Assembly: GCA_964519305.1 (NCBI GenBank)
Contig: CAZFHY010000014.1
Span: forward strand, 47,448-111,447
Origin: Candidatus Undinarchaeota archaeon
GTDB taxonomy: Archaea > SpSt-1190 > JASMDC01
DNA length: 64,000 nucleotides
Reading direction: 5' to 3'
Position 1 is the stretch's first letter. The number at the start of each line of letters is the position of its first letter. The notes beneath the pieces are model-generated. The model ran no database searches. It saw only the letters and a program-made list of their open reading frames with translations, and was not told the DNA's origin. Shown piece after piece: positions 1,361 through 9,287 of the stretch. The position numbers were made by a program, and so were the translations under genes.

Positions 1361-2170
1361 CTACGTCCTAGAGCTCTGCCCTTCCTCGATACCTTCCCTG
1401 ATGCTACGGGCGAATGCACGTATTTCGTCCAACGAGGCATCAGGATCGTCAAGATACTGCTCATAGATGCTCCCTATTGCGCTGCCGGTGATCACGCCAT
1501 CGGCGCCGGCTGAGACCACCGCGGTCGCCTGTTCCTGCTTCGAAATTCCGAAACCGACAAGGAGCGGGATGTCAGAGTGAGCTCGAACCCTCTCGATGAG
1601 CCTTAAAGTCGCCTCATGGAGCGATTCCCTGGCACCGGTGACACCGGCGACGGAAACCACGTAGACGAATCCACGGGCAACTGAAAGGATCTTTTCGAGA
1701 CGGTCGTCAGGGGTGGTCGGGGCGACGAGGAAGATAATATCGATACCGTTCTGCTCACTTGCCTCTAGCAGGTCATCAGCTTCCTCTATCGGGACATCGG
1801 GAACGATAAGGGCGCATGCTCCTGCGTCCTTGATCCTCTTGACGAAAGACCCTACCCCCATATGGTAGATGATGTTATAGTAGGAGGTGACGACGATGGG
1901 TTGCGTGATGCCCTCATCCCGGAGCTTACTGATCGACTCTATGGTCTTAGAAGGGGTCATACCGGCCTTCAGCGCCCGCTCGCAGGCCCGCTGGAACACG
2001 GGACCATCGGCAGTGGGGTCCGAGAATGGTATACCCAGCTCGATGATGGACACGCCGCTATCGCACAGTGCTTTGATCTCCTTCAGGGAGAACCCTTCGC
2101 TGGGATCGCCGTAGTATACATGTGCCATGTACGCTACCTTTTCCTTGGCGAACAGCTCACTGAGGTTCAC
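1361..2170 (-). CDS. trpA: Tryptophan synthase alpha chain
   Basis: [38 protein letters not shown]. Confidence 0.98.
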
Positions 2171-3348
2171 AGGCTCACCCCCTCTAGTCCAGCGATCATA
2201 TGGACGTCCTTATCCCCCCTGCCAGAGAGGCAAACGATGATAATGTCATCCTTCTCGAGGCTCGGAGCAAGGTCCTTGAGATGCGCAAGTGCGTGCGAAC
2301 TCTCCAGAGCGGGGATGATCCCCTCGACCTTGGACAGGAGGTGGAACGCCTCGACCGCTTCGTCGTCGGTCACAGCGACGTACTCAGCTCGCTTTAAGTC
2401 ATTGTAGAACGCGTGCTCCGGCCCGACGCCCGGGTAGTCCAGGCCCGCCGAGATGGAGTGCGCCTCGCGGATCTGGCCGTTCTCGTCCTGGATGAAGTAG
2501 CTCTTCTTACCGTGCATGATACCTACCTCGCCGGCACCAATGGAGGCACCGTGCTTGCCGGTAGCGATACCCTTACCAGCGGCCTCGACGCCCACCATAC
2601 GGACATCGTCATCGAAGAAAGGATGAAAAAGACCCATAGCGTTACTGCCACCGCCGACACAAGCGACGAGGCAGCTGGGAAGCTGTCCCTCCTGCTCCAG
2701 TATCTGTCGCCTGGCCTCGATACCGATGACGGCCTGGAAGTCGCGAACCATGGTCGGATAGGGATGCGGGCCCACGACCGATCCGATGACGTAGTGGGTG
2801 TTCCGGCAGTTTGCGGTATAGTCCCTCATTGCTTCATTGACAGCATCCTTGAGCGTCCTGGAACCAGAGGTGACCGGTACGACCCGTGCACCGAACAACC
2901 GCATTCTGAAAACGTTCAGTGATTGGCGCTGGATGTCGACCTCACCCATATATACGTCGCACTCGAGCCCTAGAGCTGCCGCTGCCGCAGCTGTGGCAAC
3001 GCCATGTTGACCAGCTCCAGTTTCTGCGATTATCCTCGTCTTTCCCATCCGCTTAGCAAGGAGCACATGGCCCAGGGTGCTGTTGATCTTGTGGGCTCCA
3101 AGGTGGGCGAGGTCTTCGCGTTTAAGGTAGATCTTGGCACCACCAAGAAGCTCGGTCAGACGATGTGCGAGGTACAGCGGTGTCGGCCTGCCCGCGAACT
3201 TTTCCAGGTATAGTCTCAGCTCCTTCTGGAAATCCTCGTCGGTCTGCACCTCCCTGTACGCTGCGTCCAGCTCCTGGAGTATGGGCATGAGCGTCTCAGG
3301 GACGAACTGGCCACCGTACTCGCCGAAATAAGCATCATCGTTCCTCAT
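2167..3348 (-). CDS. trpB: Tryptophan synthase beta chain (TrpB1 type)
   Basis: [14 protein letters not shown] (PLP Lys), [35 protein letters not shown]. Confidence 0.99.
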
Positions 3349-3983
3349 TCTTTACACCTCTTCACGAACTGTCTGACCTTCTCAGGGTCTTTTCTCCCGT
3401 CGTCCGACTCGACACCGGAGGACACGTCGACCATGTACGGACCGAGCTTAAGCGCCTCATCTACGTTGTCGGGTGTAAGACCGCCAGCGATGCTGAATCG
3501 CGGGCAATATCGTATATAGGGGGAGAGCGCGGTCGCGTAATCGGTACTCAAACCCATGCCGCCGACCTTCCCGTCATGCGTCGGCTCGAAAAGTAAAAGG
3601 TCACAGACCTCCACGAACCCCTCGAGCTCTTCGATGGTCGACGAGAGCTTCCCGGTCATGACATCGACGCCTACTGCACGAACGATTCTGAAGCCGCTGT
3701 CCCGCATCCTTGTGAGCTGACTAGCGGTCAGTGTGTACACCTGCAGCACGTCGGCCTTGACGCGCTCTCCCTTCTCGATGAACTCCTCTGCTGTAACGGG
3801 GAATCCGATGAGCGTAGAATCGACCGAGGGGCCCAAACGTCCGATGATGTCCTTGATCTGTTCAAGTGGGACGTTCCTCTTCCGGCCCTCAACGCTGACG
3901 AAACCGATGGCGTCCACACCCGCGGCCTTGCATATCAATGCATCCTCGAAGCTCCGAACCCCGCAGACCTGCACCTTCGTCAT
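3345..3983 (-). CDS. trpF: Phosphoribosylanthranilate isomerase
   Basis: [33 protein letters not shown]; position in trp operon. Confidence 0.95.
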
Positions 3984-4774
3984 CGTACCACCTCATCTCC
4001 CGCGGCTACAAGCTCTGCGACCTTTCTGGAGACGCTGTCGGCCGTCATCAGGGACGAGCCGACCAGGACCGCATCCACACGACCGCCCGACGATGCGTAC
4101 GCATGCTCGATGTCGGCTGCTGTCGATATGCCAGAGGCGCTCACGAAAGCGATGTCGTTCGCCAGCCCCTTGCCGATGGCGGCATTCTTGAGGTCGAAAG
4201 ACAGATCGCCGTAGATGTCCCGGTTGTTTATCTCGATGATCGTAGCGCCAACGCCCAATGCCTTTTCGATCTCGTCGGGTGTGTTGGCTTCGATGAACGC
4301 TTCCATACCAAGGGCCTCGCCAAGCTCGATGAGCCTGCCCGCATCCTGTAGGACCGCGTCGACGACACGGACCATGAGCAGATAGGCGTCCGCGCCCGCT
4401 ACCATGCACTCCGCCAGCTGACGTGGTGAGAACAGGAAGCCCTTGGCGAGTAATGGTAGGTCGGTGCACTCTCGCACTGTCCTGAGGTTCTCGAGGCTAC
4501 CCCCGAAACGCCGTGGCTCCACCAGGACCGAGATAGCATGCGCACCGCCCGATTCGAGCTCCTCGACTATTGAAGGTATCTCACGTGCTCCAATGCTCCT
4601 GAGCTCTCCCCTGCTGGGGGAGGACGGCTTAAGCTCGGCGATGACACGCACTCCATTCCTGCGACCGTCGCGGAGAGCGTCGTACATACCACGGACGTTC
4701 TTTTTTTCACGCAGTATATCGTCGACTATATCCCCGACGGCCTTCCCCAGGAGCTCGTGCGTACTCATCGTCAC
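3980..4774 (-). CDS. trpC: Indole-3-glycerol phosphate synthase
   Basis: IAELKPSSPSRG, ISVLVEPRRFGGS, INNRD, SGI, LVGSSLM; ATG at 4768 is an alternative start. Confidence 0.95.
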   Translation of the reverse strand: MTMSTHELLGKAVGDIVDDILREKKNVRGMYDALRDGRRNGVRVIAELKPSSPSRGELRSIGAREIPSIVEELESGGAHAISVLVEPRRFGGSLENLRTVRECTDLPLLAKGFLFSPRQLAECMVAGADAYLLMVRVVDAVLQDAGRLIELGEALGMEAFIEANTPDEIEKALGVGATIIEINNRDIYGDLSFDLKNAAIGKGLANDIAFVSASGISTAADIEHAYASSGGRVDAVLVGSSLMTADSVSRKVAELVAAGDEVVR

Positions 4775-5787
4775 TAGTTCCCGAAACCCTTGGACCGCTC
4801 GATCAGCTGATCGAGCTTCTCCCGGGCCTTTCCGCTCTTGATGGCCTGGCGTGCGAGCTCGATACCCTCTGCGATGTCGCCGGCCTTGTCGGCGGCATAG
4901 AGGGCAGCGCCCGCGTTCAGAAGGACGATGTCCGTGTACGGCGAGTCATCACCGTCCAGCACCGAGCGGGTGATGGCGGTGTTATCCTCTGGAGTCCCGC
5001 CCTGGATGTCCTCGAGCTTGGCACGGTCGAGCCCGAACTGCTCGGGGGTCAGGTAGTAAGTCTCCACCTTGCCGTCCTTCAGTTCAGAAACCTTCGTCCT
5101 ATCGATGGTGGAAAGCTCGTCCAGGCCTGAGCCGTGCACTACCAGAGCGTGGCGGAGACCGAACTTGCCCAGCACGCGGGCCAACGGCTCGGTGAGCCGT
5201 TCGTCGTACACACCGATAACCTGGTGCGCCACGTTCGCGGGATTCGTAAGAGGTCCGAGCACGTTGAACACTGTCCGGATACCGATCTCCCTCCGCGGGC
5301 CGATTGCGTACTTCATGGCCTTGTGGAAAGTCGGCGCGAAGATGAAGCCGATCCCAACGTCGCGTATGCACGTCTCGACGTCCTTTGGTGACAGGGTGAT
5401 ATCCACGCCCAAGCTCTCGAGGAGGTCGGCGGACCCAGACCTGCTCGATACGCTCCTGTTCCCATGCTTGGCGACGGACACACCCGCACCGGCCACGACG
5501 AACGCGACAGTGGTACTGATGTTGAACGTCCCGGCGCAGTCGCCGCCCGTCCCGCAGGTGTCCACCGCAGTGCCCTGGACCGAGATGCTCTCGGCCTTCT
5601 GTCGCATCACGGTAGCGCATGCGAAGATCTCATCCACTGTCTCGCCCTTCAGTCTGAGCGCGGTCAGGAACGCAGCGATCTGCGCGGGCGTAGCGTCACC
5701 GCCCATGATCTCGTTCATAACGTCGAGCGCCTCTTTCTCCGACAGGTCCTTGCCTTCGATGACTTTCTTGATTGCATCTTTTATCAT
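4774..5787 (-). CDS. trpD: Anthranilate phosphoribosyltransferase
   Basis: DTCGTGGD, FNISTT, KHGNRSVSSRSGSAD, RTVFNVLGPLTNP. Confidence 0.98.
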   Translation of the reverse strand: MIKDAIKKVIEGKDLSEKEALDVMNEIMGGDATPAQIAAFLTALRLKGETVDEIFACATVMRQKAESISVQGTAVDTCGTGGDCAGTFNISTTVAFVVAGAGVSVAKHGNRSVSSRSGSADLLESLGVDITLSPKDVETCIRDVGIGFIFAPTFHKAMKYAIGPRREIGIRTVFNVLGPLTNPANVAHQVIGVYDERLTEPLARVLGKFGLRHALVVHGSGLDELSTIDRTKVSELKDGKVETYYLTPEQFGLDRAKLEDIQGGTPEDNTAITRSVLDGDDSPYTDIVLLNAGAALYAADKAGDIAEGIELARQAIKSGKAREKLDQLIERSKGFGN

Positions 5788-6357
5788 TCATGCTCCCTCC
5801 AGGAAGTTTCTGAGGATGTCCCTACCATGTTCTGTGAGTATAGATTCGGGATGGAACTGGACGCCGTGGATCGGGTACTCGCGGTGCCGGACCGCCATGA
5901 TCTCGTCGGCCTCTGTCCTGCCTGTGATCTCCAGCTGGTCGGGGAAACCTTCAAGGGCGATGACGAGCGAGTGGTATCTGGTCGCGGTGATGGGGGTCGG
6001 TACATCGGCGAAGATGCCCGTGCCGGTGTGATGGACGCGGCTCGTCTTCCCGTGAAGGAGGTTGGCCGCCCGCTCGATCGTGCCCCCGAACACGAGCCCC
6101 ATGGCCTGATGGCCCAGGCACACACCGAGGGTCGGTATCTTCCTGCTCATCGTCCGCAGTATGTCGAGGGTGACGCCCGAGTCCTTGGGATGGCCGGGCC
6201 CCGGACTGAGCACGATCCTGTCCGGTTTTGCGGCCATGGCCTCCTTAAGGGTGATGTCGTTCCTCTTAACGATGATCTCTGCTCCCATCTCGCCAAGGTA
6301 CTGTGCTATGTTGTACACGAACGAGTCGTAGTTATCGATGATGAGGACCCTGACCAT
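5788..6357 (-). CDS. trpG: Anthranilate synthase component II (glutamine amidotransferase)
   Basis: IDNYDSF, SPGPG, GVCLGHQ, RYHSL, QFHPES. Confidence 0.97.
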   Translation of the reverse strand: MVRVLIIDNYDSFVYNIAQYLGEMGAEIIVKRNDITLKEAMAAKPDRIVLSPGPGHPKDSGVTLDILRTMSRKIPTLGVCLGHQAMGLVFGGTIERAANLLHGKTSRVHHTGTGIFADVPTPITATRYHSLVIALEGFPDQLEITGRTEADEIMAVRHREYPIHGVQFHPESILTEHGRDILRNFLEGA

Positions 6358-6358
6358 C

Positions 6359-7657
6359 TCAGCCGCCCCCCAGCACCGACATCATGGCGCCCATCTTGTT
6401 CTCCGTTTCGATGAACTCGTTCTCTGGGACAGAGTCCGCGACGATACCGGCGCCCGCCTGCAGGTACGCCTTGTTCCCCTTAGTGAATATCGATCTGATC
6501 GTGATGGCGAAGTCCATGTTCCCGCAGAAGTCAAAGTATCCGACCGCGCCAGCGTAAGGCCCCCGCCGGGTCATCTCGAGCTCCTCGATGATCTCCATTG
6601 CCCTGATCTTAGGAGCGCCCGAGACGGTGCCCGCCGGGAAGCATGAGCGCAGCGCGTCGAAGCAGTCCCGGTCCTTACGCAGCCTGCTCGTGACGTTCGA
6701 GACGATATGCTGGACATGTGAGTACTTCTCGCAGCCCATGAGCTCGTCCACCTTGACAGATCCGTACTCGGAGACGCGGCCCATGTCGTTGCGGTGCAGG
6801 TCCACGAGCATGATGTGCTCGGCCCGCTCCTTCTCGTCGAGAAGCATGCTCACTTTCAGCTTCTCGTCCTCCTCGGGGTCCTTGGACCGGGGACGCGTGC
6901 CGGCCAGTGGCCGGGTGGTCAGGACGCTGTTCTCGAGCCGCACGAGCATCTCGGGAGAGGAACCGAAGACCTTCGACTCGGCGAAGTCGATGTAGAAGAG
7001 GTAGGGTGAGGGATTCACTTGCCTGAGGATCCGGTACATGTCGAACTCATTGCCCTTGAAGGTCGCTTCCGTCCGCCTCGAGATTACCGACTGGAATATG
7101 TCGCCCGCCCGGATGTACTCCTTCGCCTGCTCGACCGCGTTCTCGAATGCCGGGCTCTTCATATTGGTCCTCGGCTTACCGATCGTGAGCTCTTCTCGTT
7201 CCTCATCTCGATAGCTGTTGATAAGACCCTCGACCTCTCGGGCGGATCCGTGGGAGATCAGGTAGGCCTTCTGGTTGATGTGGTCGAAGCAGACGACCTG
7301 TGACGGAATGATGAAGTGCGCATCGGGAAGGTTCAGCTCGTCCGTTCTCAGTTCAGGGAGCCGCTCGAAGAACCTGACGATATCGTAGGAGAAGTATCCC
7401 ACCATTCCACCCGAGAACGGGAGGAAGTCGACGGGCTCGGCACTGAAGTCGTAGAACTCGCGTCGCAGATAGTCGTACGGGTCCTCGCACTTCTCTCGGG
7501 TGCCATTGAACCGCACCTCGTGTCCCTTGGACCTGAAGGATAAGACCGGATCGAATCCGATAAATGAGTACCGCGCGGTCTTCTTGGTCCCCTCCACCGA
7601 CTCCAGGAGGAAGCTCTCGTCCTTGTACTCCTGTTTGATCGCAGCGTATGCGCCCAC
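6359..7657 (-). CDS. trpE: Anthranilate synthase component I; true start unresolved (frame stays open to 7771 with no ATG/GTG/TTG above 7657)
   Basis: FLLESVEG..ARYSFIG, NPSPY, SSPE, PLAGTRPR, EHIMLVDL.RND, PAGTVSGAPK, QAGAGIVADS. TrpE-like sequence (LKTRVRNLRLDRFDVVGAY) continues upstream of the GTG at 7657. Confidence 0.97.
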   Translation of the reverse strand: MGAYAAIKQEYKDESFLLESVEGTKKTARYSFIGFDPVLSFRSKGHEVRFNGTREKCEDPYDYLRREFYDFSAEPVDFLPFSGGMVGYFSYDIVRFFERLPELRTDELNLPDAHFIIPSQVVCFDHINQKAYLISHGSAREVEGLINSYRDEEREELTIGKPRTNMKSPAFENAVEQAKEYIRAGDIFQSVISRRTEATFKGNEFDMYRILRQVNPSPYLFYIDFAESKVFGSSPEMLVRLENSVLTTRPLAGTRPRSKDPEEDEKLKVSMLLDEKERAEHIMLVDLHRNDMGRVSEYGSVKVDELMGCEKYSHVQHIVSNVTSRLRKDRDCFDALRSCFPAGTVSGAPKIRAMEIIEELEMTRRGPYAGAVGYFDFCGNMDFAITIRSIFTKGNKAYLQAGAGIVADSVPENEFIETENKMGAMMSVLGGG

Positions 7658-7724
7658 GACGTCGAACCTGTCGAGACGGAGGTTCCGGACACGTGTTTTC
7701 AGAAGGTGTGGGTTGGACGTGGGA

Positions 7725-7775
7725 CTACCTTTGCGCTTCTTTCCGCCGACGCCAAAGATGATCCCTCCTTTTCAT
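7725..7775 (-). CDS. Putative trp leader peptide MKRRDHLWRRRKEAQR containing a candidate +1 frameshift site (CTT TGG)
   Basis: Hand-read ATG 7775 to TAG 7727-7725; single Trp codon at 7754-7752; first ATG downstream of the TATA box at 7811-7804. Confidence 0.6.
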   Translation of the reverse strand: MKRRDHLWRRRKEAQR

Positions 7776-7803
7776 GTGACCGAATAGAATAGACGCTTCC
7801 AGC

Positions 7804-7865
7804 TATATAAAGATTGCTATTATATGTTGATAATTGTACATTATTGTCCATTTTATTATTGTCCA
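7804..7865. promoter_or_regulatory. Divergent promoter region: trp TATA box (TTTATATA, minus strand 7811-7804) and phased TGTACA/TGTCCA boxes
   Basis: AT-rich island in GC-rich DNA; TGTACA 7835-7840, TGTCCA 7845-7850, TGTCCA 7860-7865. Confidence 0.6.
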
Positions 7866-7910
7866 CCCCTAGTAAAAGTATAAGAACCGGATCAGGCCGC
7901 ATCCCGCCAC

Positions 7911-9287
7911 ATGGACGCTGAACACCTAGTTCCGCCAGATGAGCTCTACGACAAGGCGGTAACCTTCTTCGAGGGTGTCAGCAAGTACGACAAAGTGCTG
8001 GTCTATGGTGACGGTGATCCTGATGGGATGACCGCAGCGGTATGCGTGTCCGAGGTGCTGGACGCCCGACTCGCCACCTATGATGTGCGGTTCACCCGGG
8101 GCCAGCTCAATACAAAGGATGTCGAACAGGTGGCACGTGGCGGGTACAACAAGATCTACTGCACTGACTTCTGGGAGATCTACGAGTCGCCCGTAGAGGT
8201 CGTCGCCGACATGGTCGAGAAGGTGAAGGAGTTCGTGGTGTATGATCATCATGACATCCGCACCGCGGGGCGAGAGAACCTCGACCGCCTGTACGAGGAA
8301 CTTGACAGGCGTGGCATCCGTGACCGGTTCACTCTCATAAATCCTAATCTGGAGGGCGTCGTCGAAGTCCCCAATGGCTCGGCATGGGAGTACCGGGTCG
8401 CCGAGCGGTACGTCGCCCGCCACCCGCGGGCGTTGCTCGGTAAGCATATGGCGCGACTCAAGGAGGTGGCGACAGCAGGAGCGATCCTCGACTACTGTGC
8501 ACCACAGTCTGCCGACCTCGTGGCCGAGACGCTGCTCGAGCATCCCGATTCCCTCGACTGCGACCGGACGGTCCTGAGGAAAGCGCTGGATGACTACCAG
8601 AACGCCATACCGGAGGACGCTGTTACGTTTACTGCACTGAAGGAAGCACTGCCGTCGCAGAACGAACTGCTCGGCTCAACCTTCGGTCTCGCCGGGCGTA
8701 ACACGTTCGCCAATTGGATTGTCGCTGGATGGCGCGGAGCACAGGACGTGTATAAGGCGGCCAAGTCCATGGTCCGCGGAACTGGCTCCTTCAATGACCT
8801 CGTAGAGGACACGGGCAGGTTCCCTGCGTACTTCAAGAACGTGAACCGCGTGGAGGGCGAACTGACTTCACAGTACGCGATATTCGAAAAGGACCTGGAG
8901 CGTCACGAGCGGGGAGAGGATACGACCGCGACCTCGTTCGATGACGAGCTGGAGCTCGCTGTGTTCCAGTACTCCTCGGAGGATCCCTTGCGTTTCGCCA
9001 GCCATCTGTCCACAAACCTGCGCGACCGACATCCAGAGTTCACTTGGTTCGTATACCAGATCAACGAGGAGAAGGGGTGGGCCGGTGGGAGCCTGCGTCT
9101 TGACGAGGAGCATTTCCCACAGTACGACCTCGCCCGCGCTGTAGCCGAAGCGTCAAAGGGCATTGACGGGGCACGCGGTGGTGGCCACAGTGCCGCCAGT
9201 GGAGCGAGCATGGCCGAGAAGGACCTCCCGCAGTTCATTGAGCGTATCAAGGAAGAGCTCAGGCAGCAGCGGAGTGCACCTGAATAA
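7911..9287 (+). CDS. DHH/DHHA1 family phosphoesterase (RecJ-like, divergent)
   Basis: DGDPDG (motif I), TDF, YDHH, GSLR and GGGH.AASG in the C-terminal DHHA1 domain. Confidence 0.8.
   Translation: MDAEHLVPPDELYDKAVTFFEGVSKYDKVLVYGDGDPDGMTAAVCVSEVLDARLATYDVRFTRGQLNTKDVEQVARGGYNKIYCTDFWEIYESPVEVVADMVEKVKEFVVYDHHDIRTAGRENLDRLYEELDRRGIRDRFTLINPNLEGVVEVPNGSAWEYRVAERYVARHPRALLGKHMARLKEVATAGAILDYCAPQSADLVAETLLEHPDSLDCDRTVLRKALDDYQNAIPEDAVTFTALKEALPSQNELLGSTFGLAGRNTFANWIVAGWRGAQDVYKAAKSMVRGTGSFNDLVEDTGRFPAYFKNVNRVEGELTSQYAIFEKDLERHERGEDTTATSFDDELELAVFQYSSEDPLRFASHLSTNLRDRHPEFTWFVYQINEEKGWAGGSLRLDEEHFPQYDLARAVAEASKGIDGARGGGHSAASGASMAEKDLPQFIERIKEELRQQRSAPE

Follow-up and report, generated by a model that had tools for sequence, protein, structure and literature searches.

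How does a ribosome find the beginning of an essential-pathway gene that offers no AUG, GUG or UUG near its N-terminus? The question is raised by trpE, the gene for anthranilate synthase component I and the first gene of a trp operon, on the minus strand of a 64,000-nt stretch of DNA from a Candidatus Undinarchaeota archaeon (contig CAZFHY010000014.1, positions 47,448 to 111,447). This stretch is called the window below, and positions without a contig label refer to it. The genome holding the window (3.63 Mb) is referred to as G000, its contigs as C2-C20, and a second species of the same genus as G001. The gene is under purifying selection in several lineages, since TrpE of G001 is 95% identical over the whole 470-residue open frame at a DNA identity of 88%, yet a canonical start codon is missing where the protein should begin. 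A restart at ACG, a +1 frameshift and a CUG start would each lie outside what is shown for archaeal translation. Our preferred and still tentative answer, drawn from comparison of sequences, is that a leaderless small open reading frame (ORF) ahead of trpE is translated and terminated, and that translation restarts at an ACG (7720-7718). An initial annotation had proposed a different answer, namely a tryptophan-sensing +1 frameshift within the same small ORF.

The architecture described in the initial annotation could be confirmed on the minus strand. A TATA box (TTTATATA, 7811-7804; TTTAAATA in G001) lies 28 nt upstream of an ATG (7775-7773), compared with 23-26 nt in two neighbouring leaderless genes, and this ATG, which is out of frame with trpE, thus lies at the place expected of a leaderless start. 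It opens uORF1 (7775-7725), a leaderless-type ORF of 16 codons that ends at TAG (7727-7725), reads ATG AAA AGG AGG GAT CAT CTT TGG CGT CGG CGG AAA GAA GCG CAA AGG TAG, encodes MKRRDHLWRRRKEAQR and contains the element AGGAGG-N6-CTT-TGG-C. The TrpE frame is +1 relative to uORF1 and opens only at 7771 because a TGA (7774-7772) overlaps the uORF1 ATG; as had been reported, its first ATG, GTG or TTG is the GTG at 7657-7655. TrpE-like sequence does begin earlier than this GTG: Pfam identifies the protein by Anth_synt_I_N (2.1e-37) and Chorismate_bind (1.8e-93), and the N-terminal domain begins at open-frame residue 36.

The missing start is not an artefact. A 1-nt assembly indel was considered and ruled out: separate assemblies of four of four runs (two studies, possibly the source samples) show 0 differing letters and 0 gaps across 7300-8200, and the same layout is found in G001 and in an independent metagenome contig (L024), which repeats the G001 sequence. 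G001 keeps the ATG, AGGAGG, CTT-TGG, the TAG and the frame offset, and over 58 nt its leader differs by a single CAT-to-CAC change that is synonymous in uORF1. At the position of GTG 7657, G001 has GTC, and the same G-to-C change is found in a minor variant contig of run X3; therefore, GTG 7657 is not a conserved start, and the next canonical start in G001 lies past the conserved LLES motif. The X3 contig itself is a low-depth, 199-nt sequence (7512-7710) with 17 differences, of which the 14 listed by position fall mostly at third codon positions of the TrpE frame, which points to a co-occurring relative.

The comparison of leader DNA rests on two species, G000 and G001. A metagenome scan for further relatives returned three loci, one of them G001-like and the other two truncated within trpE, and a genome scan returned G001 alone. 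Among the 401 genomes searched, the next trpE genes in similarity, those of G056 and G119, share 57% identity; their first canonical starts (GTG and ATG, respectively) follow directly after a TATA-like stretch, with no small ORF between, which makes them uninformative about this leader. In a ranking of 2,801 ORFs by coding-like sequence before the first canonical start, trpE takes 35th place, many higher entries being contig ends, N stretches or uncertain cases in a G000 gene list produced by a home-made codon-usage caller. Within 7300-8300 on both strands, no Rfam 15 family matched the leader at E up to 1, and elsewhere in the G000 genome no copies of the leader were found beyond chance matches of 13-16 nt.

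Where, then, did trpE originally start? Relatives' TrpE proteins, found by a search with the N-terminal 140 residues, indicate the position. The 456-aa TrpE proteins of three close relatives (P0002, P0127 and P0129; five contigs together) begin MSDPNLLRTRVRDLRLDRFDVVGAY, and the Met of their MSDPNLLRTRV aligns with the Thr of P-T-SNPHLLKTRV in the window, i.e., with ACG 7720-7718. Outgroup proteins at approx. 63% identity (P0003, P0005 and P0006) start at the same position. Therefore, the ancestral start codon lay here and is now ACG; from this start, trpE spans 7720-6359. The codon is ACG in both G000 and G001, and the codon that follows it varies (TCC/CCC). The ATG of the three relatives is deduced from their proteins, and the start states of P0126, P0004 and P0134 are taken from gene calls. 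Between P0126, for which no canonical start was called, and the ATG-type P0002, only 2 of 412 aligned residues differ; the start state therefore changed recently, at least once. The TrpE tree does not resolve branching within the genus (none of 200 bootstrap trees unites the ATG type in a single clade, and 20% unite the non-ATG type), so the number of changes between ATG and non-ATG states is not countable.

Public gene calls for this trpE vary accordingly, at 412, 415, 432, 450 and 456 aa. The 432-aa calls from GTG are of the G000 type (P0124 and P0125), and those of 412-415 aa begin at the GTG after LLES and comprise the G001 type together with P0126, P0004 and P0134. Open-frame residues 1-18 are covered by no called protein of a close relative (at least 90% identity).

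On the reading that we favour, the ancestral trpE start codon would have become ACG in this archaeal genus and would be reached through the small ORF. The mRNA would have its 5' end a few bases before ATG 7775, and the message would be translated as a leaderless one. The ribosome would translate the 16 codons, terminate at UAG (7727-7725) and restart 4 nt further on at the ACG, which would amount to termination-reinitiation on a near-cognate codon, perhaps helped by a weak Shine-Dalgarno (SD) sequence, AGGU, at 7730-7727 (minus strand), 6 nt before ACG 7720. In a predicted hairpin, the opening half of the small ORF (AGGAGGG...CUUUGGC) would base-pair with the restart region; the hairpin would probably bar free ribosomes from that region and thereby make TrpE synthesis dependent on traffic through the small ORF. 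The transcript start, translation of the small ORF, the role of ACG as the restart codon and the roles of the Trp codon and hairpin are what we infer from this arrangement.

The geometry itself is plain: AGG TAG TCCC ACG places the restart codon 4 nt after the uORF1 stop, as expected for termination-reinitiation. Such reinitiation has been demonstrated in Haloferax, where SD motifs are not essential according to the part of the study that was available (PMC6728339). The other trp genes, in the order trpE-G-D-C-F-B-A, overlap or abut their neighbours through ATGA, GTGA or TAGTG junctions, so that coupling is the norm in this operon; they carry GGAGGG or GAGGTG at the distance from the start that is occupied by AGGU before the ACG. 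Restart at the ACG explains the position of this codon, the 4-nt gap, the style of coupling in the operon, the disagreement among gene callers and a second gene with the same arrangement.

This second gene emerged from a scan for ORFs without a canonical start in front of which an ATG with TATA support opens a different frame. Among 61 hits, mostly noise, there was one clear parallel, G000:C20 45062-46348 on the minus strand. Its leaderless small ORF (L046 462-402 = G000:C20 46361-46301, minus strand) begins 24 nt after a TATA element and comprises 17 codons plus TAG, reading ATG TTA ACG ATA GAC GCA GAA AGG GGG GAG TGC GAA AAG CGA CTC CCT AGG TAG. The stop is followed by ATAT and then by ACG GAT GAC.... 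As in trpE, the small ORF and the main frame are offset by +1, and the main ORF has no ATG, GTG or TTG for 68 codons. The codon-usage score is -0.08 per codon before the ACG and +0.55 after it. In G001, the ATG is kept along with 45 identical nt, and so are the TAG, the spacer of 4 nt and the ACG. The C20 leader has neither a Trp codon nor a CUU-type site. The combination of a TATA-supported small ORF with a start-less coding ORF was found only in trpE and C20, a class of two. The C20 protein matched no Pfam family and has a homologue in its own genus only, so its N-terminus is not fixable by homology; a first guess that it is a glutamate-cysteine-ligase-like protein found no support.

The predicted trpE hairpin (7768-7715, minus strand) has the 5' arm GGAGGGAU.AUCUUUGGC and the 3' arm GC.CAAAGGU.GUCCC[ACG]UCC, in which the ACG is bulged out. 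In a 61-nt window, its energy is -21.8 kcal/mol (z -3.38, reached by 0 of 200 shuffles). The sole substitution in the G001 leader converts a U.G pair of the hairpin to C-G, which is one supporting change and not a compensatory pair. Given this pairing, CUUUGG and the SD-like run (AGGAGGG, 7769-7763, minus strand) are readable as the complement of the old ribosome-binding-site region. On the restart reading, the resemblance of the leader to the bacterial prfB site (an SD-like element followed by CUU-UGG) is a by-product of hairpin pairing and of an SD at ordinary spacing. The Trp codon of uORF1 may be coincidental as well: Trp is used at 11.3 per 1000 codons, and a single one in a 16-codon ORF is expected by chance in approx. 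16% of cases. If it does matter, a ribosome that stalls at UGG would cover the entire 5' arm and so leave the ACG region exposed, and control of the erm/cat type could conceivably be placed on top of restart.

Several observations weigh against restart at the ACG. The codon is not a canonical AUG, GUG or UUG in either species; ACG is undocumented as a start codon in Archaea, and the available part of a review of archaeal translation initiation (PMC7531240) gives AUG, GUG and UUG. The SD in front of it is a weak one of 4 nt, and genome-wide there is no excess of SD motifs before ACG (44/691, against a background of 5.5%). Likewise, the arrangement of a small-ORF stop, N4 and ACG is not enriched in the genome (9/695 for ACG vs. 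378/38,735 for all codons). The significance of the hairpin depends on the window (z -1.53 in G000 and -2.12 in G001 with 76 nt), and a hairpin that is significant at C20 in G000 is lost in G001. The TrpE frame upstream of the ACG (7771-7721) is coding-like, at +0.23 per codon (P approx. 0.07-0.10 vs. non-coding windows; the uORF1 frame scores -0.37), which fits translation in this frame ahead of the ACG. Because stalling at UGG would lower restart from the small ORF, the model alone provides no Trp-responsive control. Finally, DNA behind the ACG reading comes from two species, the start states of P0126, P0004 and P0134 being those of gene calls, as are the start states of five lineages in all.

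Among the alternatives, the one that survives best is the tryptophan-sensing +1 frameshift of the initial annotation, which we nevertheless consider unlikely. The ribosome would begin at the leaderless ATG 7775 and, when Trp-tRNA is scarce, stall on the heptamer CTT TGG C (7757-7751, minus strand) while its P site holds CUU and its A site UGG; tRNA-Leu(GAG) would then slip to UUU, giving the product MKRRDHL-GVGGKKRKGSPT-SNPHLL.... In its strict form, which we regard as equally doubtful, trpE would be made only via this slip under tryptophan starvation, and the take-over by the frameshift would be marked by the disappearance of the internal ATG from most lineages. The heptamer is one base off the prfB site as quoted in the initial annotation, and the control would run in the right direction. 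G001 keeps the site, the ATG, the offset and the open +1 frame, and its sole leader substitution is synonymous in the ATG frame. A tRNA-Leu(GAG) gene is present in the genome, and CTT T at 7757-7754 allows re-pairing in the +1 frame. From the site to the ACG, the TrpE frame is open and scores +0.24 per codon over 11 codons, with the 95th percentile of off-frame sequence at 0.00. The near-identity of P0126 and P0002, which nonetheless differ in their called starts, also fits an internal start that is dispensable. As to chance, the 3.63-Mb genome contains 14 copies of GGAGG-N4-8-CTTTGG when both strands are counted, so a copy in the right frame inside a 45-nt window was improbable a priori, an improbability that is limited by the post hoc choice of the site.

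The check on relatives that had been suggested for the frameshift gave a divided result, since the ATG, SD, CTT-TGG and offset are kept in G001 but an in-frame ATG appears in P0002, P0127 and P0129. The latter is the very observation that had been named as speaking against the frameshift: the MSDPNLL... start aligns to ACG 7720. With an ancestral start of its own, trpE did not historically require a frameshift. In addition, residues 1-18 of the open frame appear in no close relative's called protein. The CUUUGGC sequence is accounted for by hairpin pairing with GC.CAAAGGU, and the C20 leader shares the TAG-N4-ACG layout while lacking a Trp codon and a CUU-type site. The A-site codon, TGG 7754-7752, is the sole Trp codon of uORF1 and a sense codon (11.3 per 1000 codons), which would presumably be decoded slowly only under Trp starvation. 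The frameshift has no need of the ACG, leaves the C20 gene unexplained and has its SD at the wrong distance. For cellular genes of Archaea, the accessible text of PMC8211752 reports demonstrated frameshifting of the -1 type alone (fucA1).

The spacing of the SD deserves separate consideration. The 3' end of 16S rRNA, GGAUCACCUCCU, has the usual form, and in this genome ATG is most frequent 6-7 nt past GAGGTG and 7-8 nt past GGAGGT; measured from the GGAGG core, the mode is 8-9 nt, to which trpD, trpB, trpF and trpA conform. CTT 7757 follows the AGGAGGG run at 6 nt and TTG 7755 at 8 nt, and AGGAGG (7769-7764) is thus at start-codon spacing for this TTG. In prfB, the SD lies 3 nt from the slip site, a distance held to give strain. 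The initial annotation had itself raised the longer spacing as a caveat, and rightly so: at 6 nt to the CUU little strain is expected, and the same SD stands exactly at start spacing from TTG 7755. For near-cognate codons, genome-wide SD-spacing profiles gave no usable result, any signal being swamped by coding periodicity.

This spacing is the basis of a further and less probable route, in which TrpE starts at CTG 7702-7700, either de novo or coupled to a third-frame ORF. In the coupled version, AGGAGG-N8-TTG 7755 would drive uORF2 (7755-7699, minus strand; 18 codons), whose TGA (7701-7699) overlaps the CTG as CTGA, similarly to the ATGA and GTGA junctions downstream. CTG 7702 is the first codon implied by the NCBI record of G001 TrpE (P0122, 450 aa), and the CTG, the TTG ORF and its stop are all conserved in G001, where uORF2 is open with an identical stop. 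The spacing matches that of trpD, trpB, trpF and trpA; an SD-led CTG is apparently a start elsewhere in the genus (the HAD-like and C11 genes discussed below); and in the variable segment 7717-7703 the changes are one synonymous and two non-synonymous in the TTG frame vs. none and three in the TrpE frame. On the other hand, no SD precedes the CTG, codon usage in the TTG frame is off-frame-like (-0.22), and the SD and TTG lie within the 5' arm of the hairpin, within 20 nt of the leaderless ATG. In the ATG-type relatives, uORF2 would cross the trpE start. Most of the 71 CTGA overlaps in the genome simply run on to an ATG, and a convincing case of restart at CTG is not among them.

Still less probable is a +1 shift elsewhere in the small ORF. 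At AAA-AGG (7772-7767), the A4 run, followed by AGG-AGG, would allow perfect re-pairing of tRNA-Lys and yield the junction peptide MKGGIIFGVGGK; at the stop, AGG-UAG-U would be read on as GGU-AGU with the junction peptide EAQRSPTSNPHLLK. As +1 contexts, tandem AGG codons and stop codons are familiar from E. coli and antizyme genes, and the open TrpE frame begins at 7771, a single base past the ATG codon. Possible counterparts in the C20 leader are GAA-AGG-GGG-G and AGG-UAG-A, so that both leaders contain xAA AGG RGG G in the small-ORF frame and, in G000, AGG-TAG before N4-ACG. These motifs were defined from the two loci themselves, and the combination of blocks occurs at no other locus; the G001 C20 leader has ATG-TAG in place of AGG-TAG, and AGG is not rare, as it makes up 13% of Arg codons and is served by a tRNA-Arg(CCU) gene present in the genome. 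An ordinary start at GTG 7657, with an N-terminally shortened TrpE, or a gene in decay is very improbable, because this first canonical start, which public gene calls adopt (P0124 and P0125, 432 aa), has no SD, is GTC in G001 and the minor variant, where the next canonical start lies past LLES, and is preceded by Pfam domain sequence and synonymous-type changes in a protein that is 95% conserved across the whole open frame.

Is the trpE leader an isolated oddity within its genome? Restart at the ACG would be easier to accept in a lineage with lax start-codon choice, and some other genes of the genus point in this direction. Three genes have apparent near-cognate starts with a strong SD at normal spacing and coding-type conservation from there on in both species. 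The aRF1 gene has GGAGGG-N7-ATC (L027:467-469 = G000:C12:14766-14768, minus strand; kept in G001), with synonymous changes in G001 downstream of the ATC, and the next canonical start, a GTG, would drop the N-terminal helix. A HAD-like gene has GGGGTGA-N5-CTG (L028:183-185 = G000:C2:60782, plus strand; kept in G001); this CTG closely follows an in-frame TGA, and the first canonical start comes after the DxDxT motif. An ABC-2 permease has GGAGGG-N7-ATC (L029:267-269 = G000:C2:93466, plus strand; kept in G001), and a C11 gene provides another apparent SD-led CTG start. Genome-wide, SD motifs are slightly commoner than the 5.5% background before CTG (49/541) and ATC (46/593). From the C20 layout and at least three ATC/CTG start candidates, it follows that this lineage may have relaxed start-codon rules.

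Leaderless small ORFs that end beside a canonical main start are also recurrent in G000. One on C4 (L049:180-219 = G000:C4:135179-135218, plus strand) encodes MQASGPGPGRA in 11 codons, contains an internal GGGAGGG and is separated by 1 nt from the ATG at which a membrane-protein-like gene begins; in G001, it shows three synonymous changes and one non-synonymous change. Of the two such ORFs compared with G001, this one is conserved and the one on C11 (C11:120885) is not. The locus L050 matched G001 over 145 nt only and does not enter this comparison. A separate observation concerns C16:91316-91700 (minus strand), where ATG GAC GCT ACA GAC AGG TGG GGG GTC GCC TGA is followed by an in-frame coding-like ORF with its first canonical start 18 codons on; this could be readthrough, selenocysteine or another restart.

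Downstream of trpE, the operon continues on the minus strand over 1361-6357. The GATase gene trpG (5788-6357) starts 1 nt past the trpE stop and is followed by trpD (4774-5787), trpC (3980-4774), trpF (3345-3983), trpB (2167-3348) and trpA (1361-2170). Upstream, a gene of the DHH/DHHA1 family, not a trpY-like regulator, diverges from trpE (7911-9287, plus strand) and has a leaderless-type ATG 26 nt after a TATA-like box.

The promoter region between the two genes offers a further level of possible control. The repeat TGGACAATAAT occurs twice just 5' of the trpE TATA box (7865-7855 and 7850-7840, minus strand), together with TGTACA at 7840-7835 (minus strand); all of these are candidate operator boxes of the TrpY 'TRP box' type. 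In G001, TGTACA is present twice at a position equivalent to the 7835-7865 repeats, and TGTACA beside a TATA box is also found in more distant archaeal trpE promoters (L037 and L041). We take TGTACA to be the TRP-box consensus. The occurrence of TGTACA/TGGACA repeats 5' of the TATA box in both species suggests transcriptional control of the TrpY type, as read from the promoter sequences. TrpY of Methanothermobacter thermautotrophicus binds TRP boxes between trpY and trpE, as stated in an extract of PMC6737238 that does not give the box consensus. The resemblance to this system, with its trpEGCFBAD operon as described there, lies in TGTACA-type repeats 5' of the TATA box of a trpE-first operon; unlike in M. 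thermautotrophicus, the divergent gene here is the DHH/DHHA1 gene rather than trpY, and no search for a TrpY homologue was made.

It is also instructive to place the leader among known systems of translational control. As in E. coli prfB (RF2), a short 0-frame ORF contains CUU followed by U, an upstream SD-like element and an A site that might be filled slowly, with the functional protein in the +1 frame and a corresponding autoregulatory logic. In prfB, the A-site codon is a stop and the SD is 3 nt away, whereas here it is the sense codon UGG, the distance is 6 nt, and the host is an archaeon without RF2. Moreover, the main ORF has an ancestral start (ACG, or ATG in relatives), 4 nt before which the 0-frame ORF ends. 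The Ty1 +1 site, CUU-AGG-C, shares the form CUU-NGG-C with a hungry codon. Eukaryotic GCN4 and ATF4 depend on reinitiation after upstream ORFs, and archaeal initiation factors are eIF-like; the likeness is that of a small ORF ahead of an amino-acid-pathway gene. Unlike in these eukaryotic systems, there is no scanning 40S subunit or cap, and there is no sign here of dependence on a ternary complex or a rare tRNA.

Leader-peptide control in bacteria takes the form of transcription attenuation in trpL and translational attenuation in ermC and cat. The trpE leader resembles these in that the 5' arm of a predicted hairpin contains a short ORF in which the regulated amino acid is encoded and the 3' arm contains the ribosome-binding region, and by the trpL/ermC logic a ribosome paused at UGG would free the restart region. 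In contrast to trpL and ermC, there is one Trp codon and no tandem pair, there is no terminator or alternative hairpin, and the message is an archaeal leaderless one with a non-canonical downstream start. Termination-reinitiation in Haloferax volcanii and E. coli is another point of comparison: in the part of PMC6728339 available, a stop lies a few nt from a downstream start and the upstream ORF contains an SD-like motif, as here, and the remaining genes of the trp operon have ATGA and GTGA overlaps. The differences from the couplings described in that part are that the upstream ORF is a leaderless ORF of 16 codons and not a gene, that the restart codon is ACG and that a 4-nt gap takes the place of an overlap.

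The organism is unusual in other respects. The G000 genome (99.8% complete, 4.3% contamination) measures 3.63 Mb, compared with 0.6-1.2 Mb for the class relatives examined, and the genus is labelled publicly as both 'Candidatus Undinarchaeales archaeon' and 'Methanopyri archaeon', so that its placement looks doubtful or unusual.

Whichever of the two leading readings applies, ACG restart or a CUU-UGG frameshift would be new for Archaea. If the frameshift were true, the CUU-UGG slip would carry the autoregulatory principle of RF2 over to a sense codon. Archaea would thereby gain their first programmed +1 frameshift in a cellular gene, and trpE would head the first amino-acid operon, whatever the domain, that is known to be controlled by such a slip. 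Gene calling in uncultured archaea is affected in any case, as the five different lengths publicly called for this one TrpE make clear. If, as we tentatively favour, translation restarts at ACG after a small ORF, then the trpE and C20 leaders constitute a testable pair for reinitiation on leaderless mRNAs.

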